A DNA stretch of 44,797 nt. Source: a virus. Lineage: Duplodnaviria > Heunggongvirae > Uroviricota > Caudoviricetes. A program made the translations under genes and the position numbers. The notes under the pieces are model-generated. The model worked only from the letters and a program-made list of their open reading frames with translations. It was not told the DNA's origin and ran no database searches. The stretch lies in IMG/VR virus record IMGVR_UViG_2568526230_000010; one strand, written 5' to 3'. Shown here piece by piece: positions 1,162-44,797 of this stretch; position 1 is the stretch's first letter; each line of letters opens with the position of its first letter.

Positions 1162-1260
1162 AATCATTCCCACTCAATTATTTACGGACACCATAACTAA
1201 TTGAGTGATAACATTTTTCCAAAGATGAATTTTTCTCGTACCGTTTTATATACCGTCACC
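1162..1260. other. Candidate att core and P' arm (start of attL/attP identity)
   Basis: First bases shared by the left junction and the inter-copy junction; contains 10-bp inverted repeat CACTCAATTA (1171-1180) / TAATTGAGTG (1198-1207) and the 11-mer ATACCGTCACC (1250-1260) that recurs in the opposite arm at 40954-40964. Confidence 0.35.
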
Positions 1261-1288
1261 GGAAATCAGTACCATGAAAAATGCCATG

Positions 1289-1771
1289 CTATCTGGTCAG
1301 TGTGTCGTACTGTTTTTCGCAGACTCTTCCGGCTTCGGCTGCCCGGTCAGCATACTCTGCCAGTTGTCTGTTTCTCTCGAGAGATTTGCTGAGCACGTCG
1401 GCAAGCAAAACTCCGGTGTCTGCGGCTGACGTCCCAGCGCCGACAATGGCGTTATACTGCCTGAGCTGCTCACGGATGGCAAAGAGTTGTTGCTGCAACC
1501 TGCCAGCGCGAGCGGCAGCATCAAGAGCATCGCTGCGCGCCTGCTCGATCCTCTGCTGCGCTTCACGTTCATTGGTCGCTTTCTCCTGTTCGTAGTGCTG
1601 ACGAACTTTTTCTTCTTCGGCTTTGCGGTCTTCTTTCGCCTGCGCATACCCGGCGTCGTACTGACGACTGCCGTGTGCATTCCAGGCTACAACTCCTGAT
1701 ATGACCAGAACAGCAAGCATCGCCATGATAACCAACTGTTTCCAGTATGCTTTTACGAATGCCCAGATCAT
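1289..1771 (-). CDS. Rz-like inner-membrane spanin
   Basis: 160 aa; N-terminal TM helix then Q/E/R/A-rich coiled coil; last gene of the lysis cassette, overlaps the endolysin stop by 4 nt. Confidence 0.75.
1297..1530 (-). CDS. Rz1-like outer-membrane lipoprotein spanin, embedded in Rz in the +1 frame
   Basis: Internal start gives [12 protein letters not shown]… with lipobox LAGC and a Pro/Ser-rich 77-aa product lying entirely inside the Rz ORF, as in lambda Rz/Rz1. Confidence 0.6.
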   Translation of the reverse strand: MLLMLPLALAGCSNNSLPSVSSSGSITPLSALGRQPQTPEFCLPTCSANLSRETDNWQSMLTGQPKPEESAKNSTTH

Positions 1772-2397
1772 ACCGCTAGCGCCTTACTGGCAGTGATGTA
1801 CCGAGCGCGCCGGTCGTCGATGCCGTTCCTGCCACCATTGATAATCAGAGTTACACGTGCAATATCGCCGGTATACTTCATGCAGCCTTTGCTGGAGAAA
1901 AACCACGCCGCGCTACGAGCTGCATATTCGTCCTGCGCCAGCAGTTCAGGATTCTCCAGCAGGTCCACTTTCAGGCCGTTTCCGCAGTCACGATAGTTAT
2001 TCAAACCGGTAATCTGGATAAGTCCGCGCCCACGGTAATTCCATCCATCGCCTGGGGCATTGTTACCCATGCGTTTGCTGTACACCAGATTTGCGATCGC
2101 GCGCTGGCGCTCGAGTTGCAATGGTGGTTCACCAGCACGGCGACCCAGTGCGTTGGCCTGTCCCTGAGTGAGACGTCCTGCCCGAACAAAGTTAGCCAGT
2201 CCTGTGACACTGTAGTTGAAATTCTCCTGCAACCTGGTGAAGCCACCAGACTCATGCCCGACTTGAGCAATAAACATTGCCTGATCTTCTGCTTTGCTGA
2301 TACCAAACTCTTTCATTGCAGAAGTTATATGCGAGAACCAGCGTGCGGCCAGCGCCTCGCTAATACCAGCAGCTCGCTGGAATTGTTTAATCTCCAT
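1768..2397 (-). CDS. Endolysin, glycoside hydrolase family 19 (chitinase-like lysozyme)
   Basis: 209 aa; motifs [12 protein letters not shown] and [12 protein letters not shown] typical of GH19 phage endolysins; sits between holin-like genes and Rz. Confidence 0.8.
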
Positions 2398-2695
2398 GTT
2401 TAGACCTCGTTATCTTGAAAATCTGAACGACGTTACCGCGAGTTTTAAGAACCGCAGCAAGCATGACAGCGTTGATAATGACCTCAGATAAATCCACAGC
2501 CATTGGCGTGCGTAACCAGATTGCATAGGCGACTCGAACAGGAATACTGGCCGCAGCAACAATCAGGAAATAAGCAAGCCATCCTCCCCACCTTCGATGT
2601 TGAGAGCCGTTACGCCGGAATGTGACAACGCGAATTGCTATGCCAGTGCAAATAACTGCATTGGTGATAAGCAAAAAAAACTCATGCGTTACCAT
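2387..2695 (-). CDS. Holin-like small membrane protein
   Basis: 102 aa with hydrophobic TM segments and a charged C-terminus; overlaps the endolysin start. Confidence 0.5.
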
Positions 2696-3086
2696 CGTCT
2701 TTTCTCCCCGGAATTAACTCGCGTGGATTATCGGAACGGTGATAGAGCCATATACCAATACGCACAGCGACAATTGCTGACACAAATGCGCCTGCAGAGA
2801 AAACAATCCCTTTTTCAAAAGAGTCCTGCGTGATGGTAGGGATCAGGCTGGCTATGCCGATAAGAATTGATGCTGCTGGTTTGTAAAAGAGAAGGCCGCA
2901 AAGAAAGCTGAGCATCGACAGGAGCACCCGGCGACGGATGGGGTACTCTACTGCAGAGGTAACAAAAATTACCGCCCCAGCCAAAGCCCCTAAAGCAACC
3001 TCCGGAGGGACACCTGCAATAACCGCAGCAAGAGAACTAACACTAAGCCACTGATTTGAAGTTTCATTGGTTAGTTGGAATGACAT
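2682..3086 (-). CDS. Holin/antiholin-like multi-TM membrane protein
   Basis: 134 aa, three to four hydrophobic helices; first gene of the lysis cassette, downstream of the tailspike. Confidence 0.5.
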   Translation of the reverse strand: MSFQLTNETSNQWLSVSSLAAVIAGVPPEVALGALAGAVIFVTSAVEYPIRRRVLLSMLSFLCGLLFYKPAASILIGIASLIPTITQDSFEKGIVFSAGAFVSAIVAVRIGIWLYHRSDNPRELIPGRKDDGNA

Positions 3087-3158
3087 AACGAAACCCGTTT
3101 ATTTGCAAACACCCTGCTTCAGGAAAAGTATACCGCGCAACAACACACCATTTACGGT

Positions 3159-5621
3159 TCAATTCCCTGTTAATTGCAAAACTTGCTCTTCCAGCTTTTT
3201 AACCCTGCGTCTCATCATCGCAGATTCCAGAATCAGAGCCTCTTCATAACGGATACCGTAACATTCACCAGCCTCGACGGCTTCGCGTACCAGAACCTTT
3301 GTCTGTATAAGTGGGTAAACTCCTGCAGAATGCTCTTCTTCCGTCACATCCCTGTATTCTGCCGGGGTCTCATTCCACTTGTCATAACAGATAAATGCCA
3401 GTCGTGACACATCTATGCCTTCATTCTGAAATACACTGATAACATGCTGCGCAACTGCACCAAAGTGCCATCTTGCTCCGTCTTTACCTTTCACTTCGAT
3501 CCTGTCAAGGTACTGGTATGAAACCCATTCCACTCTTTCCCATGCGTCCAGTATTTTCTCATCAATAACCTCTGGAGCAGTCTTGAAACGCGCATCGGAC
3601 AGCACCGTAAACGCTGACTGGGTAAATCCCCCCGACCATGCACGACCAGCCAACCCAAGAGAATAAGTATTCGTTGTCGATGGTGTCATGGCTGAATCAG
3701 AAAACTGTATATATTCTGAATTTCCAGTAGATATTCGAATATTTCCATTTATTAGCGACATAGTGCCTTTAGTATTATCACTATTGAATAATTTCAATTG
3801 CGAACTTATACCGCCTCCCACAGCCAGAGATACATCGCCTTCAGCAAGCATTCTGAATTTATCTGCAGAAACAAGCGTCTGGTTAGCAAGGTTAAAATAT
3901 TTAACCCACCATTCAAAACGCCCTGACATAGTCCCAACGTACTGACCAAGCGCAGGGACGTGAACAACATTGCTATTTGTAGTGCCGTCTATACTGGAAA
4001 TACCAGTCACCGCTGATGCAGAACTCAGAATATTATTTCTGTCACCAGGATGTTTAATTTCAACAAAGTTCCTGATACACCCTTCCTCGAAGGTAACCAC
4101 GCCGGAAGAACTATACATGGGGAATATTGACGCATAATTACTGCGTGCAGCATCTAAGAAACGAATGGTTGTAGATGTCTGCAGATCTCCTGATTCATTT
4201 TTCCCATCACACCCAGTCATTAGAATATTACTGGCAATATTATTATTTCCCTGAACGGTGACGCCGTGCGCCTGCTTTGCGTCCGATTCAGAGTAATCAA
4301 CCAGCACATCCGAAATCAGGTTACCAGTCCCCTTGCCAACAACTACTGCGGCGTATTTTGGGTTGTTAGCCATTACACTGCTAATGATATTATTCGTTGG
4401 GGCAGTTTCCGTCTCAGTTCCATTGTAAACAACGTGCTGACACTCTTCACCAATAACATTGCTGACAATGTTATATTTTGCTGCTGTTTTAAGTTCCACT
4501 GCACCAAACTGAGGATAATTTCTGGCTATCACACCATCAATTAGCGTATTTTGCGATGAATCAAAAAGCACACAACCTGCTTTTTTATTATTTGCGAACC
4601 CTAAATACTCTCCTCTTATATCTCTAACAATGTAACCTGACGGAATACCATTATTCGGATAAGCGATCAAGCTAAATCCTGTTCCTCGCGTATTTGTAAA
4701 TCTGATATTTTTAACCGATACATCATGGCCACCTGAAAATGACACCTGGTGTCCCTGCACACTATCATCTGATTTATTTCCCATAATTGTTAGCGTACTA
4801 AGCATGCCACCATCGGGCATGTTAAAAACCAGATGATTACCATCTCTGTCATACTGTTTTATCGTTCCCCCACCTGTTCCGTACAAGCCACAACGTGAAA
4901 GAGAAACTAAAGATGTATTGAATACCCCTTCCGGAACAAAAACACTGCTAAACGAATGTAATGATTTTGTAAAAGCATCCTTGTTATCATTTAAGATTCC
5001 ATTTTGAGCTCCAAAATCCTTAATGCTGACACCATCACGCATCTTATCCTGGAACGTTCTGTATACCGCTCCAGAACCATACTGAATAAACCAACCAAAA
5101 CCACCAATAACTCCGGCGATTGCAGCATCGACATAATTACGCATTGAGCGATTATTTACAGCGTCCTGCTCAAGTGATGGATCGGCAAGGTTAGATATTC
5201 TGTTTTGCTTTGCATCGTAATATTTTGCAAGCAAAGATGGTTTCATCAATGCACGTCTGAACAACCCAAAACATCGCTGGATCAGCATCGTCAGGTAGTC
5301 AAATGCATCCTCATGAACTTCGGGGAAAAATTTTCCCTGATTGCGAAGATCAGTCTCCTGCACCACATCAAGCACACGCTCTATCGTGATTCGCCAGCCA
5401 GCAGCAAGCGGCGACGGAAGAACCACTGCACCGCCACTATAAGTTCCCGCCCCTGTTACCGTATAACCAGCATCCAGCACTAGTTTTGTAACGTTACCGT
5501 TAAGGTCAGACACCTGAACAACCAGGTCGGATTTTTTGAAAATACGGAAGGTATACGGAAATGATGTCGTAACGCCGTTACCTGTGTATTCGTTGTGGTC
5601 AACTTCGGTTGAGACCGTCAT
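3159..5621 (-). CDS. Tailspike with beta-helix and C-terminal intramolecular chaperone (S74-type autoproteolytic) domain
   Basis: 820 aa; conserved podovirus particle-binding N-terminus; long Gly/Asn/Ser/Thr-rich repetitive middle; C-terminal 150 aa ending in a coiled coil resembles endosialidase-type chaperone domains. Confidence 0.8.
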   Translation of the reverse strand: MTVSTEVDHNEYTGNGVTTSFPYTFRIFKKSDLVVQVSDLNGNVTKLVLDAGYTVTGAGTYSGGAVVLPSPLAAGWRITIERVLDVVQETDLRNQGKFFPEVHEDAFDYLTMLIQRCFGLFRRALMKPSLLAKYYDAKQNRISNLADPSLEQDAVNNRSMRNYVDAAIAGVIGGFGWFIQYGSGAVYRTFQDKMRDGVSIKDFGAQNGILNDNKDAFTKSLHSFSSVFVPEGVFNTSLVSLSRCGLYGTGGGTIKQYDRDGNHLVFNMPDGGMLSTLTIMGNKSDDSVQGHQVSFSGGHDVSVKNIRFTNTRGTGFSLIAYPNNGIPSGYIVRDIRGEYLGFANNKKAGCVLFDSSQNTLIDGVIARNYPQFGAVELKTAAKYNIVSNVIGEECQHVVYNGTETETAPTNNIISSVMANNPKYAAVVVGKGTGNLISDVLVDYSESDAKQAHGVTVQGNNNIASNILMTGCDGKNESGDLQTSTTIRFLDAARSNYASIFPMYSSSGVVTFEEGCIRNFVEIKHPGDRNNILSSASAVTGISSIDGTTNSNVVHVPALGQYVGTMSGRFEWWVKYFNLANQTLVSADKFRMLAEGDVSLAVGGGISSQLKLFNSDNTKGTMSLINGNIRISTGNSEYIQFSDSAMTPSTTNTYSLGLAGRAWSGGFTQSAFTVLSDARFKTAPEVIDEKILDAWERVEWVSYQYLDRIEVKGKDGARWHFGAVAQHVISVFQNEGIDVSRLAFICYDKWNETPAEYRDVTEEEHSAGVYPLIQTKVLVREAVEAGECYGIRYEEALILESAMMRRRVKKLEEQVLQLTGN

Positions 5622-22857: not shown

Positions 22858-23150
22858 TCCTGTTCACTGGCCTCTTTGGCCATCTTCAAATACTGTTCAG
22901 GGCAATGCGCCATAACGCGCTGAAACAGTTCCAGCGCCAGATTGCGTTGCCCCTCATTAAATGCCATTGCCATAGCATCCATCGGAGAGATAGCGGAAAA
23001 CACCCGGCCTTTCTCCAGCACCGACCAGACAACGCGACGCCCCTGTTCACTGCTCATGACAAAGCGAATGTCATCAATTTCACGCTGTGCCATGTCACGT
23101 TGCTTACGGGCGTTTTCTTCTTTCAGTTGATCGTCTTCGTAATCTGTCAT
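22854..23150 (-). CDS. Hypothetical small protein between portal and scaffold
   Basis: 98 aa; 4-nt overlaps with both neighbours. Confidence 0.5.
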   Translation of the reverse strand: MTDYEDDQLKEENARKQRDMAQREIDDIRFVMSSEQGRRVVWSVLEKGRVFSAISPMDAMAMAFNEGQRNLALELFQRVMAHCPEQYLKMAKEASEQE

Positions 23151-24826
23151 TGTGATTGCCCACCCTGACCACTAACTGCATTCGCCATAGCTGACAAAAC
23201 ACTCGGATCCGAAGTTTTAGCTTCGCTTAGCGTCTTGGCACCCTGTGCCGCCGCCATCCCCATCGCCATCATTTGTTGCTGCTGTTGTTGCTGTGCCCGT
23301 TGCTGGCGAGCCTGCTCAACCTGTTCCTGCGGAACAATGACGGTTGGAGACACTCCGGACATATCAGCGAATGCATCGATCGCCTGATCAACGTTGAGTT
23401 TGTCGAGAGCTTCTGGTTTCGCTTGCGCAAGTTGACCAATGAAGTTAACCGTGGACGCCAGACTGGACAGGCCGATAGACTTCTGCGCCTGAGCCATGAC
23501 GGAAATGTATTCGACCTTCAGGGGCATACCTTCCATCACGTCTGGCGGTGGCGGCAGCATGTTTTTACGCACCATCATCGAGAAAGAGCGGTCAATGAGA
23601 GGATTAAGACATTCGTCGTTCAGACGCTCCAGAACCGGCCCCAACATCAGAAGTTTTTCTTCTTTCATTTCGATCACCGCTTCAACAGGCATCGAGCGGG
23701 TATTGATGTTCTGCAACATCATGAACAGATCGACAAAGTAGGCGCTGTTAATGATTTGACGAGTGTCCTGAATGTCTGCCACCAAATCTGCTGTACTGGG
23801 GTTAACCAGATAAGCAGGCCTGAAACCATCCTGACCAGTAATCTGATCGATATACGTGATGTCGCCAGGAAGAAGGGAGGCGCGCTGATTCTTGAGGGAA
23901 GTCGGAGCAACCATCGGCGGATTGGTGGCTTTATCAATCAACTGCGACTTGCGCTTCTGGAGAAGCTGCAATGCCTTAACAGGTCCAAGCGCCAGCATAC
24001 CCGGGCATGATGATCCATAAACATCTTCGCCGTTAACTTCCCAGCGCGGAGCCATAATTGGAAACTCATCGAATCCGGACTCACGCAACAACTTGTCGTT
24101 ATCGCCACCAACCTCGTAATAAACCGATTTGAATGGCTTGTTCTTGCTATCCAGCTTCGATGTATCGCGGTCAATGTTCGGGTAAACCGAATGCATCACT
24201 TCAATCCACTTCTCGTAGGTGCCGCTTTCCCACATGCTTTTTACGGATTCGCTGACGTTATTTAGCCCGAACTCCTGAACAAGCTGACGAACAGTCATAG
24301 AGAACTTGCGAAAACAGGTGTCCACACTGCCACGAGGTGAGTTAGCCAGGTAGTAACTGCCTATCGGGAATGGCATTGTGCGAATGATGTCCTCGTCATC
24401 CTCCAGCACTGCCATTGCACCAGTGCTGTATGTGCCGAGGCTTCCGTATAACTGCGGAAGAGACTGGTAGAGATTCGACTTATTGAACATATCGTTCATG
24501 CGGTTCTGCACCACCTCAAGCCACAACTTAACAGGGCCATAATCCATCATTTCAGGATCTGGCGTAGCCAGGCGAAACCACGGACGCGCGGGGCTTGTGA
24601 TGCCTGACATCATGCCGCTGGCGAGAGTGCGCGCCGCCATAGTCCCGGTCGAATCAATAATACGTGTATTGCGTCGATCGTTACGGTTGACCTCAGAAGT
24701 CAGAAAGCGGGAACCACGCGGGTTGATGTAATCACTCAACTCGCGCCAGTGCGGCTCAAACGACTGACGCTCGCTTTCAAGTTGTGCGAACTGTTTGTTC
24801 AATCGCTCTTTAGTTGTTTCCGCCAT
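23147..24826 (-). CDS. Portal (T7-type head-to-tail connector)
   Basis: 559 aa; size and composition of T7-gp8-type connectors, including the Gln/Ala-rich tail; RBS GGAG 9 nt upstream. Confidence 0.75.
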   Translation of the reverse strand: MAETTKERLNKQFAQLESERQSFEPHWRELSDYINPRGSRFLTSEVNRNDRRNTRIIDSTGTMAARTLASGMMSGITSPARPWFRLATPDPEMMDYGPVKLWLEVVQNRMNDMFNKSNLYQSLPQLYGSLGTYSTGAMAVLEDDEDIIRTMPFPIGSYYLANSPRGSVDTCFRKFSMTVRQLVQEFGLNNVSESVKSMWESGTYEKWIEVMHSVYPNIDRDTSKLDSKNKPFKSVYYEVGGDNDKLLRESGFDEFPIMAPRWEVNGEDVYGSSCPGMLALGPVKALQLLQKRKSQLIDKATNPPMVAPTSLKNQRASLLPGDITYIDQITGQDGFRPAYLVNPSTADLVADIQDTRQIINSAYFVDLFMMLQNINTRSMPVEAVIEMKEEKLLMLGPVLERLNDECLNPLIDRSFSMMVRKNMLPPPPDVMEGMPLKVEYISVMAQAQKSIGLSSLASTVNFIGQLAQAKPEALDKLNVDQAIDAFADMSGVSPTVIVPQEQVEQARQQRAQQQQQQQMMAMGMAAAQGAKTLSEAKTSDPSVLSAMANAVSGQGGQSQ

Positions 24827-24840
24827 TTCAATGACTCCGG

Positions 24841-25047
24841 TTACTGACCAAGCAGCGTTTTACCGCTGGTATTAGCGGTTGATGTGTCGCCCTGAGAACC
24901 GGTAAGCAGCGTAGAACTACGACCAGCAGCAGCGCGACGGCGACGTGTTTCTTCGTCGCGGGCATCAACAACGGCGACATCCTGCTCCTGTGGTGCTGCC
25001 TGAACTTCTGGTGTTGCAGGCACTGATGGTGAGCTACCCATGCACAT
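24841..25047 (-). CDS. Small acidic protein upstream of portal
   Basis: 68 aa; shares the initiation context GGAGTCATTGAWATG with the portal gene; stop 12 nt before the portal RBS. Confidence 0.45.
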   Translation of the reverse strand: MCMGSSPSVPATPEVQAAPQEQDVAVVDARDEETRRRRAAAGRSSTLLTGSQGDTSTANTSGKTLLGQ

Positions 25048-25137
25048 ATCAATGACTCCGTACGCAATTAAATTATTACCAATTTAACCACATATGTTTT
25101 ATTTATCGTAGAAGGTTGACATTTAACGCGCTAATTA

Positions 25138-25152
25138 TTACCCTTCAGGTAA
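25138..25152. promoter_or_regulatory. Operator-like palindrome TTACCCTTCAGGTAA next to a TTGACA -35 element
   Basis: Family member with one mismatch; TTGACA at 25116-25121 lies 16 bp upstream, in the divergent region between the portal operon and the tRNA. Confidence 0.4.
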
Positions 25153-25474
25153 CTAAAGAGTTCATTCCGGTTACTAACCTGACTGGCTTGTCGTTAAATT
25201 GAACAGGTGGAGTGAGCTTTTATTTTGAGCAGTACGGCGTATGGCACATGCGCCGATAGCGGTCTGGATACGTTTAAGGGGCACCCTCCCTTGCTCGGGC
25301 AAACGAACCAGGTAGCCGGAATGTGCAAGTCGAGCGGTTTTATTCCGCGCACGGGGATTCACCATCCCGGCGATTCGGTGTGACGCCTCGGAAGAGACGA
25401 GGGTACAACGATGAGAGCATTTATGGAGCCGCGACAAAGTGTGGCGCCTTAACAGGCTAAGTGCTCTCAGCGTT

Positions 25475-25551
25475 GTGGCATTAGCTCAGTTGGACAGAGC
25501 AACCGCCTTCTAAGCGGTTGGTCGCAGGTTCGAATCCTGCATGCCACGCCA
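25475..25551 (+). tRNA. tRNA-Arg (anticodon UCU), phage-encoded
   Basis: Cloverleaf folded by hand: acceptor GTGGCAT/ATGCCAC, D-stem GCTC/GAGC, anticodon stem ACCGC/GCGGT with loop CTTCTAA, T-arm GCAGG-TTCGAAT-CCTGC, discriminator G and encoded CCA. Acceptor stem differs from host argU as recalled. Confidence 0.85.
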
Positions 25552-25594
25552 GAATCACGCCTAAGGACCGTGATGCCAGAAGTTCCAGGGGCTT

Positions 25595-25636
25595 GGCGGT
25601 GATGGTTTCCCTTGAAGGACTATCACCGCCCTTTTT
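25595..25636 (+). terminator. Terminator hairpin after the tRNA
   Basis: 9-bp stem GGCGGTGAT/ATCACCGCC followed by CTTTTT. Confidence 0.5.
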
Positions 25637-25714
25637 ACAGCAGGACGCCATTGCGATGACTTCATGCTGTAAACCAGTACAGCCACGGAAGGCATAACTC
25701 ATTGCTTCCAGTTC

Positions 25715-25738
25715 GCCCGGTTCGCCGGGCATTTTTTT
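25715..25738 (+). terminator. Rho-independent terminator with UUCG tetraloop
   Basis: GCCCGG-TTCG-CCGGGC followed by T7, ending 5 nt before the RBS of the 25750 gene. Confidence 0.65.
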
Positions 25739-25749
25739 AAGGTGAGATT

Positions 25750-26106
25750 ATGAACGACCAGCAAATCGAAAAAGAAATCGTTGAGAAAGGCAAAACCGCT
25801 CCGCGAGTTACGCCTCAATATATCGAAAGCATCATTCTTGAAGAGCATTTCTTTACTGCTTATGACGGCATTCGTGCTGCCAATATGGGCGTTGGCGATT
25901 CATGGACAGCGCATAAATCTACAGACCTCCTGACTTTCTGCGTATTGGTACTGAAGAATGGCTTCACCGTCACCGGAGAGAGTGCCTGTGCAAGTCCGGA
26001 AAATTTTGATGCAGAAATTGGTCGGAAGATTGCCCGGCAGAATGCTGTAAACAAAATCTGGATGCTCGAAGGTTACTTGCTGAAGCAGAAGTTAAGCGAG
26101 CAATAA
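25750..26106 (+). CDS. Gp49-like phage protein (N4 gp49 / Sf6 gp66 family), moron on the opposite strand
   Basis: 118 aa; RBS AGGTGAG; sequence resembles the Gp49-like family; transcribed against the surrounding structural operon. Confidence 0.6.
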   Translation: MNDQQIEKEIVEKGKTAPRVTPQYIESIILEEHFFTAYDGIRAANMGVGDSWTAHKSTDLLTFCVLVLKNGFTVTGESACASPENFDAEIGRKIARQNAVNKIWMLEGYLLKQKLSEQ

Positions 26107-26196: not shown

Positions 26197-27672
26197 TTAA
26201 GCATAAGGGTCATAATCCGTTATGGCCCTTCCCTGCTGGCTTTGCTGTCCTGGTATATTTATGCGTTTCGAGACCGGGAAAGCAAACGTCAGCAGTAGCG
26301 CATCGCCTTTACCAGGAGAACGCCCAAGACGCTCTTTGATATCTTCCTTCGGTTCGATAACGATTTTACCGTCCACACGAACTTTGTACTCTGCCGCAGA
26401 CAGGTCGTCCGCTGTTTCCTGGTCATCCAGCATGCCGCCCAGCCTCAGCCATGTCTTGCATGAGTTGAACATCTCCCCACGCTTGTTGAGCATCTGCGGG
26501 TCAGTAGACGCGCCACCGAACGGAACAAGTTGCCATGTGCGCCCCCAACCATCACCGATTGACTTCAGACCGGTACCGTAACCGAAGTCGATGAACACCG
26601 CGTCAGCCTGATACTGGTCTTCAAAGTCAGCGATACGCTTCGCCATAATCAGATCGTCGGTAGTCTTGTTGCCAGTCCACAGCACCTTACTGTGTAGCCC
26701 CTGCCGCAGGTATATCACCGCGTCATCAACGCCTGAATATGCCGGGTCAACACCGATTATCACCGGAGCATGCGCCACCTGCGCAGCGGTTACCACCCGT
26801 TTCATTGCCTCATCAGTAAGACCGGTAGGGATAAACTGCAATTCAGATGCATCAGGGAATATGCCGCGCACACGGATTTTAACGAAGTCGCTGTCTTCCC
26901 CGTAGTCATCGACCCATTTCTGCAACTGCTGTTTGTTAGTGCCTTCCACCGTCCGGCTGTCAATCTGCGCAGTTTTCCAGCGGTGTTTATATTTGCGGAA
27001 ACATTCGCGGAAACGCCCGGTGTTACGTGTAGGGTTTCCGAACGCCACCCAGATAATCTCAGTGTCTTCGTCCGTAAGCGCACCCTCAGCAACTTCCCAC
27101 ACCAGATCCGCAATGTTCGACGCTTCATCGAATACCACGATGATGCGTTTGCGCTCGTTGTGTAGTCCGGCGAATGCCTCAGTGTTGTGCTCAGACCAGG
27201 GGATTGCGTCAGCTCGCCACCGCTTGTCGTGCCCAGGATCATTGCTGTACATCGCGGTAGCGGTACAGGTAAACCAGTCTTTCGTGATAGCAAGGTTCGA
27301 CCACTTGATAATTTCCGGCCAGGTCTTCGTTCGTAGCTGGTTGTCGGTGTTGGCGGTCACCACGACCTTACAATCCTCGCAAGTGGACATGCCCCAGTTG
27401 ATCAGCATTGAGATGAATGCGGATTTACCAATACCGTGACCAGAAGCACGTGCCAGCATAAGCGGCTGATATCGCGTCTCTGGATTCTGCAGGTGATCAC
27501 GTATCTCTCGGAACGCATCGGCCTGCCACTGACGTGGACCGGTGGCATGTGCCAGTTCAGTACCCTCTTCCCCCCACGGGAACGCATAGAGGGCATAGCC
27601 AAGCGGATCGTGAGTGAACCCTGCAATATCCTCGATTAACTGCTCTTCAGGAGATAACGCTGTATCTGTCAC
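26197..27672 (-). CDS. Terminase large subunit
   Basis: 491 aa; Walker-A-like GHGIGKSAF in the N-terminal ATPase part and acidic nuclease-domain motifs (VIIGVDPAYSGVDD); start overlaps the TerS stop by 4 nt. Confidence 0.85.
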   Translation of the reverse strand: MTDTALSPEEQLIEDIAGFTHDPLGYALYAFPWGEEGTELAHATGPRQWQADAFREIRDHLQNPETRYQPLMLARASGHGIGKSAFISMLINWGMSTCEDCKVVVTANTDNQLRTKTWPEIIKWSNLAITKDWFTCTATAMYSNDPGHDKRWRADAIPWSEHNTEAFAGLHNERKRIIVVFDEASNIADLVWEVAEGALTDEDTEIIWVAFGNPTRNTGRFRECFRKYKHRWKTAQIDSRTVEGTNKQQLQKWVDDYGEDSDFVKIRVRGIFPDASELQFIPTGLTDEAMKRVVTAAQVAHAPVIIGVDPAYSGVDDAVIYLRQGLHSKVLWTGNKTTDDLIMAKRIADFEDQYQADAVFIDFGYGTGLKSIGDGWGRTWQLVPFGGASTDPQMLNKRGEMFNSCKTWLRLGGMLDDQETADDLSAAEYKVRVDGKIVIEPKEDIKERLGRSPGKGDALLLTFAFPVSKRINIPGQQSQQGRAITDYDPYA

Positions 27673-41087: not shown

Positions 41088-41214
41088 AATCATTCCCACT
41101 CAATTATTTACGGACACCATAACTAATTGAGTGATAACATTTTTCCAAAGATGAATTTTTCTCGTACCGTTTTATATACCGTCACCGGAAATCAGTACCA
41201 TGAAAAATGCCATG

Positions 41215-41697
41215 CTATCTGGTCAGTGTGTCGTACTGTTTTTCGCAGACTCTTCCGGCTTCGGCTGCCCGGTCAGCATACTCTGCCAGTTGTCTGTTTC
41301 TCTCGAGAGATTTGCTGAGCACGTCGGCAAGCAAAACTCCGGTGTCTGCGGCTGACGTCCCAGCGCCGACAATGGCGTTATACTGCCTGAGCTGCTCACG
41401 GATGGCAAAGAGTTGTTGCTGCAACCTGCCAGCGCGAGCGGCAGCATCAAGAGCATCGCTGCGCGCCTGCTCGATCCTCTGCTGCGCTTCACGTTCATTG
41501 GTCGCTTTCTCCTGTTCGTAGTGCTGACGAACTTTTTCTTCTTCGGCTTTGCGGTCTTCTTTCGCCTGCGCATACCCGGCGTCGTACTGACGACTGCCGT
41601 GTGCATTCCAGGCTACAACTCCTGATATGACCAGAACAGCAAGCATCGCCATGATAACCAACTGTTTCCAGTATGCTTTTACGAATGCCCAGATCAT
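41215..41697 (-). CDS. Rz-like spanin (copy 2)
   Basis: Protein identical to the 1289..1771 product. Confidence 0.75.
41223..41456 (-). CDS. Embedded Rz1-like lipoprotein spanin (copy 2)
   Basis: Identical to the 1297..1530 ORF. Confidence 0.55.
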   Translation of the reverse strand: MLLMLPLALAGCSNNSLPSVSSSGSITPLSALGRQPQTPEFCLPTCSANLSRETDNWQSMLTGQPKPEESAKNSTTH

Positions 41698-42323
41698 ACC
41701 GCTAGCGCCTTACTGGCAGTGATGTACCGAGCGCGCCGGTCGTCGATGCCGTTCCTGCCACCATTGATAATCAGAGTTACACGTGCAATATCGCCGGTAT
41801 ACTTCATGCAGCCTTTGCTGGAGAAAAACCACGCCGCGCTACGAGCTGCATATTCGTCCTGCGCCAGCAGTTCAGGATTCTCCAGCAGGTCCACTTTCAG
41901 GCCGTTTCCGCAGTCACGATAGTTATTCAAACCGGTAATCTGGATAAGTCCGCGCCCACGGTAATTCCATCCATCGCCTGGGGCATTGTTACCCATGCGT
42001 TTGCTGTACACCAGATTTGCGATCGCGCGCTGGCGCTCGAGTTGCAATGGTGGTTCACCAGCACGGCGACCCAGTGCGTTGGCCTGTCCCTGAGTGAGAC
42101 GTCCTGCCCGAACAAAGTTAGCCAGTCCTGTGACACTGTAGTTGAAATTCTCCTGCAACCTGGTGAAGCCACCAGACTCATGCCCGACTTGAGCAATAAA
42201 CATTGCCTGATCTTCTGCTTTGCTGATACCAAACTCTTTCATTGCAGAAGTTATATGCGAGAACCAGCGTGCGGCCAGCGCCTCGCTAATACCAGCAGCT
42301 CGCTGGAATTGTTTAATCTCCAT
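41694..42323 (-). CDS. GH19 endolysin (copy 2)
   Basis: Protein identical to the 1768..2397 product. Confidence 0.8.
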
Positions 42324-42621
42324 GTTTAGACCTCGTTATCTTGAAAATCTGAACGACGTTACCGCGAGTTTTAAGAACCGCAGCAAGCATGACAGCGTTG
42401 ATAATGACCTCAGATAAATCCACAGCCATTGGCGTGCGTAACCAGATTGCATAGGCGACTCGAACAGGAATACTGGCCGCAGCAACAATCAGGAAATAAG
42501 CAAGCCATCCTCCCCACCTTCGATGTTGAGAGCCGTTACGCCGGAATGTGACAACGCGAATTGCTATGCCAGTGCAAATAACTGCATTGGTGATAAGCAA
42601 AAAAAACTCATGCGTTACCAT
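42313..42621 (-). CDS. Holin-like membrane protein (copy 2)
   Basis: Identical to 2387..2695. Confidence 0.5.
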
Positions 42622-43012
42622 CGTCTTTTCTCCCCGGAATTAACTCGCGTGGATTATCGGAACGGTGATAGAGCCATATACCAATACGCACAGCGACAAT
42701 TGCTGACACAAATGCGCCTGCAGAGAAAACAATCCCTTTTTCAAAAGAGTCCTGCGTGATGGTAGGGATCAGGCTGGCTATGCCGATAAGAATTGATGCT
42801 GCTGGTTTGTAAAAGAGAAGGCCGCAAAGAAAGCTGAGCATCGACAGGAGCACCCGGCGACGGATGGGGTACTCTACTGCAGAGGTAACAAAAATTACCG
42901 CCCCAGCCAAAGCCCCTAAAGCAACCTCCGGAGGGACACCTGCAATAACCGCAGCAAGAGAACTAACACTAAGCCACTGATTTGAAGTTTCATTGGTTAG
43001 TTGGAATGACAT
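42608..43012 (-). CDS. Holin/antiholin-like membrane protein (copy 2)
   Basis: Identical to 2682..3086. Confidence 0.5.
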   Translation of the reverse strand: MSFQLTNETSNQWLSVSSLAAVIAGVPPEVALGALAGAVIFVTSAVEYPIRRRVLLSMLSFLCGLLFYKPAASILIGIASLIPTITQDSFEKGIVFSAGAFVSAIVAVRIGIWLYHRSDNPRELIPGRKDDGNA

Positions 43013-43084
43013 AACGAAACCCGTTTATTTGCAAACACCCTGCTTCAGGAAAAGTATACCGCGCAACAACACACCATTTACGGT

Positions 43085-44797
43085 TCAATTCCCTGTTAAT
43101 TGCAAAACTTGCTCTTCCAGCTTTTTAACCCTGCGTCTCATCATCGCAGATTCCAGAATCAGAGCCTCTTCATAACGGATACCGTAACATTCACCAGCCT
43201 CGACGGCTTCGCGTACCAGAACCTTTGTCTGTATAAGTGGGTAAACTCCTGCAGAATGCTCTTCTTCCGTCACATCCCTGTATTCTGCCGGGGTCTCATT
43301 CCACTTGTCATAACAGATAAATGCCAGTCGTGACACATCTATGCCTTCATTCTGAAATACACTGATAACATGCTGCGCAACTGCACCAAAGTGCCATCTT
43401 GCTCCGTCTTTACCTTTCACTTCGATCCTGTCAAGGTACTGGTATGAAACCCATTCCACTCTTTCCCATGCGTCCAGTATTTTCTCATCAATAACCTCTG
43501 GAGCAGTCTTGAAACGCGCATCGGACAGCACCGTAAACGCTGACTGGGTAAATCCCCCCGACCATGCACGACCAGCCAACCCAAGAGAATAAGTATTCGT
43601 TGTCGATGGTGTCATGGCTGAATCAGAAAACTGTATATATTCTGAATTTCCAGTAGATATTCGAATATTTCCATTTATTAGCGACATAGTGCCTTTAGTA
43701 TTATCACTATTGAATAATTTCAATTGCGAACTTATACCGCCTCCCACAGCCAGAGATACATCGCCTTCAGCAAGCATTCTGAATTTATCTGCAGAAACAA
43801 GCGTCTGGTTAGCAAGGTTAAAATATTTAACCCACCATTCAAAACGCCCTGACATAGTCCCAACGTACTGACCAAGCGCAGGGACGTGAACAACATTGCT
43901 ATTTGTAGTGCCGTCTATACTGGAAATACCAGTCACCGCTGATGCAGAACTCAGAATATTATTTCTGTCACCAGGATGTTTAATTTCAACAAAGTTCCTG
44001 ATACACCCTTCCTCGAAGGTAACCACGCCGGAAGAACTATACATGGGGAATATTGACGCATAATTACTGCGTGCAGCATCTAAGAAACGAATGGTTGTAG
44101 ATGTCTGCAGATCTCCTGATTCATTTTTCCCATCACACCCAGTCATTAGAATATTACTGGCAATATTATTATTTCCCTGAACGGTGACGCCGTGCGCCTG
44201 CTTTGCGTCCGATTCAGAGTAATCAACCAGCACATCCGAAATCAGGTTACCAGTCCCCTTGCCAACAACTACTGCGGCGTATTTTGGGTTGTTAGCCATT
44301 ACACTGCTAATGATATTATTCGTTGGGGCAGTTTCCGTCTCAGTTCCATTGTAAACAACGTGCTGACACTCTTCACCAATAACATTGCTGACAATGTTAT
44401 ATTTTGCTGCTGTTTTAAGTTCCACTGCACCAAACTGAGGATAATTTCTGGCTATCACACCATCAATTAGCGTATTTTGCGATGAATCAAAAAGCACACA
44501 ACCTGCTTTTTTATTATTTGCGAACCCTAAATACTCTCCTCTTATATCTCTAACAATGTAACCTGACGGAATACCATTATTCGGATAAGCGATCAAGCTA
44601 AATCCTGTTCCTCGCGTATTTGTAAATCTGATATTTTTAACCGATACATCATGGCCACCTGAAAATGACACCTGGTGTCCCTGCACACTATCATCTGATT
44701 TATTTCCCATAATTGTTAGCGTACTAAGCATGCCACCATCGGGCATGTTAAAAACCAGATGATTACCATCTCTGTCATACTGTTTTATCGTTCCCCC
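43085..44797 (-). CDS. Tailspike (copy 2), partial: N-terminal part lies beyond the window end
   Basis: Identical to the C-terminal 570 codons of 3159..5621; the reading frame stays open to the last base of the window. Confidence 0.75.
   Translation of the reverse strand, partial: GGTIKQYDRDGNHLVFNMPDGGMLSTLTIMGNKSDDSVQGHQVSFSGGHDVSVKNIRFTNTRGTGFSLIAYPNNGIPSGYIVRDIRGEYLGFANNKKAGCVLFDSSQNTLIDGVIARNYPQFGAVELKTAAKYNIVSNVIGEECQHVVYNGTETETAPTNNIISSVMANNPKYAAVVVGKGTGNLISDVLVDYSESDAKQAHGVTVQGNNNIASNILMTGCDGKNESGDLQTSTTIRFLDAARSNYASIFPMYSSSGVVTFEEGCIRNFVEIKHPGDRNNILSSASAVTGISSIDGTTNSNVVHVPALGQYVGTMSGRFEWWVKYFNLANQTLVSADKFRMLAEGDVSLAVGGGISSQLKLFNSDNTKGTMSLINGNIRISTGNSEYIQFSDSAMTPSTTNTYSLGLAGRAWSGGFTQSAFTVLSDARFKTAPEVIDEKILDAWERVEWVSYQYLDRIEVKGKDGARWHFGAVAQHVISVFQNEGIDVSRLAFICYDKWNETPAEYRDVTEEEHSAGVYPLIQTKVLVREAVEAGECYGIRYEEALILESAMMRRRVKKLEEQVLQLTGN

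Follow-up and report, generated by a model that had tools for sequence, protein, structure and literature searches.

The stretch of viral DNA analysed here, called the window, is IMG/VR record IMGVR_UViG_2568526230_000010 at its full length of 44,797 nucleotides (nt), and it comes from a phiV10/epsilon15-like podovirus (Uetakevirus). A short unit on its + strand comprises a predicted promoter, a short leader, the RNA element that is the subject of this work, a tRNA-Arg(UCU) gene and two intrinsic terminators, and is followed by a gene of the N4 gp49 / Sf6 gene 66 family. The neighbouring genes at 24841-25047, 23147-24826 (portal side) and 26197-27672 (large terminase) are all on the minus strand, so the unit was rightly described in the original prediction, made from the letters alone, as running against the structural genes. 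BLAST shows the region to be 98-99% identical to phiV10, TL-2011b, the O157 typing phages 9/10 and ZX5. The original prediction had taken the sequence upstream of the tRNA for its leader and had raised the idea that a second RNA element might be held within it. Our results indicate that 25234-25474 is almost certainly an autonomous, conserved, pseudoknotted non-coding RNA, a mobile module of temperate enterobacterial phages and not a tRNA leader.

The RNA element and its fold

The element consists of a conserved core (25234-25405, + strand), defined by covariation in two alignments and by the covariance model R1, and of a 3' arm. The core is built from hairpin H1 (25235-42/25248-55, loop GGCAC), helix H2 (25263-67/25308-12), which closes a variable arm, the near-invariant 19-mer strand GGUAGCCGGAAUGUGCAAG (25311-25329), the small variable hairpin H3 (about 25334-48), H4 (25354-57/25365-68, loop UUCACCA), a pseudoknot formed from the H4 loop (25360-63/25377-80), and H6 (25386-90/25398-402, loop GGAAGAGA), all on the + strand. 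The 3' arm H7 (25406-25475, +) has a 16-pair closing helix (25406-25421/25460-25475), whose last pair uses the first base of the tRNA and which also forms in the minimum free energy fold of the window sequence. It encloses a hypervariable distal hairpin region, and homologs have a distal arm of 30-200 nt; T-arm-like hairpins (GGUCCGUUCGAUUCGGAC, GGAAAGGUUCGAUUCCUUUCC) were seen inside this arm at three loci (L010, L013 and L112). In the alignments the near-invariant blocks GGCACAUG, AGCGGUC, the 19-mer, GGCGAUNCGGUGUGAC and GGAAGAG are separated by variable segments. The 19-mer occurs once in the window, where none is expected by chance, and it is exact in 63 of 76 copies retrieved via a different anchor, the others being 1-2 bases off. 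RNAalifold proposed a long-range GGCACAU/AUGUGC pairing, which gave way to the local, covarying hairpin H1; a 4-bp contact GCAC/GUGC between loop and strand, invariant in the alignment, is possible.

The support for this structure comes from covariation and not from single-sequence folding energy. The hairpin density that had been noticed at the locus is real, and the fold of the single sequence is only modestly better than that of shuffled sequences (z = -1.81). In alignment A2, made of 64 representatives less than 93% identical, 96.3% of the cells are paired, compared with 26-46% when the partners are slid; 13 pairs show compensatory (double) changes, and the 137 double-changed cells stand against 35 +/- 9 in shuffles, none of 500 shuffles reaching 137. 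Alignment A5, with 72 distinct sequences that were mostly retrieved independently by the other anchor and aligned to R1, gave 96.9% of cells paired (28-43% slid) and 193 double-changed cells against 61 +/- 9 in shuffles, a value reached by 0 of 500. The pseudoknot is 100% paired in A5 although it had been left out of R1, with C-G and A-U exchanged in 11 sequences, and H7 has 93.8% of its cells paired against 36-45% slid, with four compensatory positions and one conserved mismatch. R1 gives 124-180 bits to true elements and at most 15 bits to chance matches, finds one match per locus on one strand, and scores 148 bits in the window at 25220-25413 (+). The suspected second RNA element is thus borne out by conserved, covarying structure in homologs, and the counter-proposal that homologs share no conserved structure clearly fails. 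The description of a GC-rich leader of about 320 nt was correct for composition (GC 0.534 for 25153-25474 and 0.577 for 25234-25474, vs 0.494 for the window); the sequence is not uniform, as 25151-25233 is a leader specific to the genus and 25234-25474 is the RNA module.

The abundance of G.U pairs shows that the molecule is an RNA of the + strand. A DNA-level signal, such as an operator cluster, a recombination hotspot or a single-strand initiation site, or else a small protein gene on either strand, could be argued from the sharp edges of the module, which resemble those of recombination modules, and from the hypothetical proteins annotated across the element in several GenBank records. Such coding sequences lie over it on either strand in mEp460_037, mEp390_036, Ayreon, JL22, Tyrion gp54 and phiSTEC1575, and in 109 of 160 loci the antisense strand has an open reading frame (ORF) of about 86 aa. 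Against this, the G.U pairs would be A.C on the other strand and the model matches are strand-specific. Short ORFs are present on both strands of the region, and the earlier view that none is credible agrees with our finding that no reading frame is conserved among homologs, the inter-block lengths falling into all classes modulo 3 (32/20/12 and 28/20/16, n = 64). Which antisense frame is open varies from one homolog to the next, and 15 of 64 lack one, so that no protein is conserved; a small protein, sense or antisense, was therefore ruled out, and the GenBank coding sequences are probably spurious because no frame is kept. We consider a DNA signal or a protein gene highly improbable.

Distribution of the element and its relation to tRNA genes

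Searches with megablast and blastn found the element at 70-84% identity in phages otherwise unrelated to the window phage. The carriers include the lambdoid and Shiga toxin (Stx) phages cdtI, mEp460, mEp390, 2H10, Ayreon, Stx2c phages, Stx2a_1447/WGPS2 and 1720a-02, the P1 family (P1, P7, D6, SJ46 and RCS47), Klebsiella phage SopranoGao and one record that carries the label of a Stenotrophomonas phage. Two independent anchors, used in exact-pattern scans, located it in more than 120 IMG/VR contigs, in genomes of 23 Enterobacterales species and in many metagenome contigs, and, the Stenotrophomonas-labelled record excepted, no members beyond Enterobacterales-type phages were found in these searches. 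Discarded from the scans were 42 metagenome matches to the second anchor, which are unrelated GC-rich sequences, and four genome matches to an 18-mer (three gut metagenome-assembled genomes and Azonexus), which are due to chance. Of 5426 complete E. coli genomes, 1840 carry the element, at 1920 chromosomal and 554 plasmid places, and none of these copies is annotated by PGAP. It is a single-copy feature, with 86 places in 86 phage records and one in the window.

The element is absent from the catalogues that we consulted. Rfam 15 (4227 models) leaves it unmatched at E <= 10 in the window and in mEp460, and at gathering thresholds in P1, mEp460, BUCT708, SopranoGao, mEp390 and Tyrion, with seven homologous loci covered in all besides the window, and full-text literature searches on the conserved sequence and on plausible descriptions returned no account of it. 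The same Rfam searches recorded a C4 antisense RNA (83.6 bits) and an isrK RNA (67 bits) beside the Rha antirepressor gene of mEp460 (L002 206-293 and 318-394, both on the minus strand), and an int-alpA RNA (44 bits) in Enterobacter phage Tyrion (L008 3208-3272, +). We class the element as a new RNA family, which joins the orphan structured RNAs already known from phages. The large orphan Rfam RNAs ROOL and GOLLD, which are often found in prophages beside tRNA genes, are comparable as complex-folded, phage-borne non-coding RNAs with no assigned function and frequent tRNA adjacency. They differ in size (500-800 nt vs about 240 nt for the element) and in their hosts, which are mainly Firmicutes and others whereas the element is found in Enterobacterales; the element has no Rfam match and is promoter-proximal and early.

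Adjacency to a tRNA turned out to be optional. The tRNA-Arg(UCU) lies directly downstream in about 43 of 193 unique copies and most copies have no tRNA nearby, which excludes a universal linkage and shows that the module is not a tRNA leader, the tRNA being one of several alternative neighbours. In the P1 family a tRNA-Ile is directly upstream of the element, and in lambdoid phages the element sits in the PL leader, so the leader interpretation made in the original prediction has to be abandoned. That the sequence is just the leader of a tRNA precursor, or the functionless relic of a tRNA array, would fit with the co-transcription of both parts in the window, with the degenerate copies often carried by phage tRNA clusters and with the pseudo-tRNAs called in the region by relaxed ARAGORN. 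These relaxed calls are noise, however, as they also fall within the core and no cloverleaf is conserved there, and neither the scarcity of tRNAs next to other copies nor near-invariant blocks and helices that covary across unrelated phage backbones would be expected of such a leader. We give this explanation almost no weight; it is contradicted by the data, as are the DNA signal and the small protein.

The tRNA itself is real. ARAGORN and Rfam both place a tRNA-Arg with anticodon UCU and an encoded CCA (25549-25551) at 25475-25551 (+), in agreement with the tRNA unit first described there. Its RF00005 score is 73.3 bits (E = 8.6e-16, gathering threshold 29), and tRNA-Arg(TCT) is the single tRNA called by ARAGORN across the whole 44.8-kb window; the RNA element upstream of it has no Rfam tRNA match. 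The phage genes use AGA at 4.9 and AGG at 3.8 per 1000 codons, and some late genes are much richer, such as the 820-aa ORF at 3159-5621 with 15.9 per 1000. Averages for E. coli K-12 are about 2 for AGA and about 1 for AGG. Because usage in the phage is above these averages, the proposed aid to the translation of rare AGA codons is reasonable, and it is plausible that the tRNA-Arg(UCU) is a separate cargo supplying AGA decoding, a matter distinct from the upstream RNA. As a further observation, positions 1162-4871 of the window recur without a single difference at 41088-44797 (3710 nt). The window therefore goes around a genome of about 39.9 kb and overlaps itself, either by circular permutation or because the record is above unit length.

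The predicted early transcript and the sequences 3' of the core

Homology to the lambdoid and P1 copies begins sharply at 25234/25235 in every lineage. Only Uetakevirus relatives match upstream of 25234, and the short 5' leader at 25151-25233 (+) is specific to this genus and common to epsilon15. A sigma70 promoter is predicted at 25116-25144 (+), with the -35 hexamer TTGACA (25116-25121), a 17-nt spacer, the -10 hexamer TACCCT (25139-25144) and a transcript start near 25151; it was picked up by a relaxed scan only and missed by a stricter one, and it is kept in epsilon15 as TTGACA-17-TACCTT. The palindrome TTACC-N4/5-GGTAA (25138-25152), over the -10 hexamer and the predicted start, is a putative repressor operator, the counterpart of a site labelled 'protein_bind repressor, lysogeny' by the depositor of epsilon15 (L004 1322-1338, offset from the blast alignment).

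Similar settings recur in other phages. Of 62 representatives, 29 have a predicted sense promoter in the 150 nt ahead of the element, vs 8.4 in shuffles; the antisense strand gave 3, and the element itself and the sequence past it gave none. A CI-type repressor gene is just upstream on the same strand in 74 of 160 loci; the downstream genes show no consistent function across loci. In mEp390 a promoter-like TTGACA-18-TACATT ends about 55 nt upstream of the element, and in SopranoGao a terminator is followed by an extended -10 promoter with its start within a few nt of H1. In mEp460 the cI gene closes with its own terminator, after which come a PL-like promoter and, overlapping it, two OL operators (TTGC-N7-GCAA, also the OR pattern); this separates cI from the element, so that rex-like co-transcription with cI was rejected for this phage. 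The mEp460 element begins about 40 nt after the predicted PL start, which is the nutL/putL position, at the head of an 11-gene early-left operon in which no N is annotated (no search aimed at N was made). In P1 the element belongs to the ban operon, which is under C1 control; it is flanked by trnI and ban, 2.3 kb separate it from the promoter, and the ban start codon comes about 60 nt past H6 with no terminator before it. The general feature of the element is its location near the start of a repressor-controlled early transcript, though in P1 it lies farther from the promoter.

On the 3' side of the window unit, a hairpin AUCACG-N9-CGUGAU read from the sequence (25554-25574, +) directly follows the tRNA, and its AAUCACGCCUNAGGACCGUGAU is also found 3' of a tRNA or tRNA-like module in L012, L013, L076 and L093. 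Uetakevirus-type loci keep the hairpin after true tRNAs and tRNA-like modules alike. The terminator scan found two intrinsic terminators, as had been proposed, T1 (25595-25636, +), with a 14-pair stem (25595-25630) followed by CUUUUU, and T2 (25715-25738, +), with six G-C pairs (25715-25730) and the U-run AUUUUUUU to 25738. The T2 stem is followed by ATTTTTTT in DNA letters, and directly after the end of the U-run at 25738 come AAGGTGAG and the ATG at 25750, so that T2 is indeed placed just before the ribosome-binding site of the gp49-like gene. Terminator-like sites number 5 in the region vs 1.7 expected. A strong hairpin homologous to T1 (-18 to -22 kcal/mol) is kept in Uetakevirus-type loci, the tandem of a strong T1 and a weaker T2 about 100 nt apart recurs across the genus, and the T2 counterpart in the epsilon15 record is annotated as a rho-independent terminator. 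The gene that follows (25750-26106, +; PF13876, 118.6 bits; phrog_322) could be part of the transcript of the RNA and the tRNA or be separate from it.

Epsilon15 keeps H1 only and resumes inside T1 (L004 1498-1581 and 1579-1731), so it looks like a phage that deleted the core together with the tRNA and left T2 and the downstream gene in place. A similar truncated remnant is present in metagenome contig L283. Since epsilon15 kept the downstream gene after losing the core, this gene does not need the RNA.

By the main rival explanation, the element is a cis-acting RNA for read-through, or processive antitermination, whose nascent fold would ride RNA polymerase past early terminators. It would be functionally like the put RNA of HK022, which binds the zinc-binding domain of the RNA polymerase beta' subunit and overcomes termination with no protein cofactor, and would replace N/nut in lambdoids that lack N. 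The promoter-proximal position in early units agrees with this, as does mEp460, where the element occupies the nutL/putL position past the cI terminator and the OL operators of a long early-left operon with no annotated N; the mEp phages were moreover isolated as Nus-dependent (PMC11893012). Terminators do stand before the first ORF in the window (the genus-wide T1/T2 tandem), in mEp460 (a hairpin with a U-tract) and in loci of the L097 type, and an energy-based census counted 47 downstream terminators in sense vs 26 in antisense, a modest enrichment; a first strict census had found none. The likeness to put thus extends to a phage RNA with higher-order structure located just past a repressor-controlled PL in a lambdoid without annotated N, shortly downstream of an early promoter and upstream of terminators, P1 excepted.

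The put RNA, however, measures about 70 nt, folds into two stem-loops and is found as a pair, putL and putR (PMC9378689), whereas the element is 170-240 nt, has 6-7 helices, a pseudoknot and an invariant strand of 19 nt, and is found at one place per phage record and not in both early operons. It is also carried by podoviruses and P1, and homology to put was rejected because R1, run with its filters off on HK022 20000-40751, scores no more than 3.7 bits. The P1 copy, far from its promoter and with no terminator before ban, the SopranoGao record, which has almost nothing downstream of the element, and epsilon15, which lost the element and kept T2 and the gene, also disagree with a read-through function. 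A lambda-type boxA (GCUCUUUA-like) was rejected as well, the resembling GCTCTTTAACAA (<= 1 mismatch) being present in only 3 of 163 unique copies as the U-tail of a bidirectional terminator. As for other nut-like features, UGCUCUUU (rrn boxA positions 1-8) occurs in 20 of 192 copies inside the 3' strand of H7, the loop of the H6 hairpin CCUCG-GAAGAGA-CGAGG (25386-25402), 7-8 nt long, includes GAAGA as does the boxB loop of lambda nutL, and the first downstream protein has no arginine-rich N-terminus (no systematic search for N was made). On balance we regard antitermination, including the put-like replacement of N/nut, as rather unlikely.

In at least half of the copies H7 is followed without a spacer by ...GUUG|UGG..., leading into the tRNA-Arg or into a module of 83-133 nt, and this junction to the tRNA or tRNA-like module, ...CGUUG|UGG, is invariant. 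The modules close with an acceptor-like stem, GUGGUGA/UCACCAC and variants, and acceptor closure of at least 7 bp is seen in 64% vs 26% of shuffles, in an observed set that includes the true tRNAs. Such tRNA-sized modules take the position of the tRNA-Arg in mEp460 (L002 2741-2873), in an Stx2c phage (L018) and in L024, L093 and L076, with a closing stem GUGGUGA...UCACCAC-AACA and D-like and T-like arms. The L024 module folds as a four-arm cloverleaf (z = -2.7) with the 7-nt loop CUUUUAA at the anticodon position, and that of L093 has a fold with z = -4.3. Relaxed ARAGORN proved too noisy to be used on these modules. In L097, L054 and L169 a bidirectional terminator directly follows the core. 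At 22 of 225 loci, among them L085 (5260-5370), L005, L105, L055 and L024, a separate downstream module resembles the 3' end of the small RNA (sRNA) RprA; it has GCUGUGUKUAGUCUU plus a terminator, reaches 37.4 bits with the Rfam RprA model (E = 0.004, below gathering) and is absent from the window. Judged by this resemblance, phages with such ends may carry RprA mimics.

A fixed core followed by variable 3' parts could also be read as a riboswitch-like sensor in an early leader, with the core as aptamer and the 3' parts as expression platforms that set transcription of the early operon. The pseudoknotted core with about 50 near-invariant nt ahead of variable 3' sequence is typical of aptamers, and both the 5' leader position and the terminator directly after the core in one subclass suit this explanation. 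Yet no alternative pairing was found between the core and any terminator or Shine-Dalgarno (SD) sequence, and in most copies a stable H7 and a tRNA or tRNA-like module come next rather than a terminator or an SD-sequestering hairpin. There is no Rfam riboswitch match even at E <= 10, and the functions of the downstream genes hint at no ligand. A sensor of this kind seems improbable to us.

Proposed role in the early lytic cycle

We tentatively favour, at somewhat less than an even chance, the possibility that the element is a free, stable, early-lytic RNA that is released by tRNA-type processing and acts in trans. In the window it would be transcribed from the predicted, repressor-controlled promoter at 25116-25144, which would make the RNA one of the first lytic products. 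The primary transcript would begin at about 25151 and cover the RNA and the tRNA up to T1. Cleavage by RNase P at 25474/25475 would then free the tRNA and set the 3' end of the RNA at the foot of H7. Where the tRNA is missing, a tRNA-like module or a terminator would fill the 3'-end role, and in P1 the 5' end may be set by 3' processing of the upstream tRNA-Ile. The invariant single-stranded segments, displayed by H1, H2, H4 with the pseudoknot, and H6, could bind a macromolecule conserved across Enterobacterales, and likely purposes would be host take-over or counter-defence early in the lytic cycle.

Several observations lead us to this preference. Self-contained units exist, consisting of terminator, promoter and RNA in SopranoGao and of the core with a bidirectional terminator in L097, L054 and L169; the junction to the tRNA or tRNA-like module is invariant, hypervariable peripheral arms surround a fixed core, and the downstream gene of epsilon15 dispenses with the RNA. 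The neighbours of the element are also other small-RNA cargo, namely tRNAs, the dicF-like region in P1 and the RprA-like ends elsewhere. The eukaryotic MALAT1/mascRNA pair, in which a downstream tRNA-like structure drives 3'-end formation, offers a parallel: a structured RNA directly before a tRNA or tRNA-like module with an invariant junction, where the proposed RNase P cut sets the 3' end. It differs in that our element belongs to a bacterial phage and that the module in the window is a genuine, probably functional tRNA-Arg. DicF of Qin, with a dicF-like region in the same P1 ban operon that holds the element, is likewise an RNA cargo of repressor-controlled early transcripts with proposed release by processing; it is, however, a base-pairing RNA of about 50 nt that depends on Hfq, whereas the element is a large compact pseudoknot fold with no evident seed. 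An Hfq-type prophage sRNA (Pas, DicF or RprA-like, about 50-110 nt with a seed and a terminator) was rejected as a description, as the element lacks its own terminator in the window. The Pas sRNAs are 84-nt Hfq-type RNAs of the late region (bioRxiv 10.64898/2026.05.13.724894), and an identity with them was ruled out, the two being different objects.

Other findings weigh against a free RNA released in this way. The base at -1 for RNase P, U25474, takes part in an H7 pair, a less than ideal state for cleavage, and the sequence of the element points to no target. The tRNA-like nature of the replacement modules is only suggestive, since neither Rfam nor default ARAGORN calls a tRNA in them. The terminators between the element and the first ORF in the window, in mEp460 and in the L097 type suit read-through in cis at least as well, and their excess in sense orientation also counts here.

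The setting of the element gives it a wider meaning. Placed where repressor-controlled early transcripts begin, it would be one of the earliest RNAs produced upon prophage induction. That it represents a new class of phage regulatory RNA is a bolder proposal, which we consider doubtful at present: either an antiterminator unrelated to put that modifies RNA polymerase independently of protein and replaces N/nut in many lambdoid prophages, or an early RNA that neutralises a conserved host factor or defence, in both cases a module that has spread among temperate podo-, sipho- and myoviruses of Enterobacterales, P1 among them. If the element itself is real, an RNA of complex fold would have been overlooked in heavily studied material, namely P1, the Stx-converting and other lambdoid prophages and the O157 typing phages. 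The element is carried by about one in three complete E. coli genomes, and several databases overlay it with spurious hypothetical-protein genes; the covariance model R1 is ready for use in annotation. Given its early position, the RNA could bear on early-gene expression in lambdoids without N, including some Stx2 phages, and on how temperate phages disarm their host.

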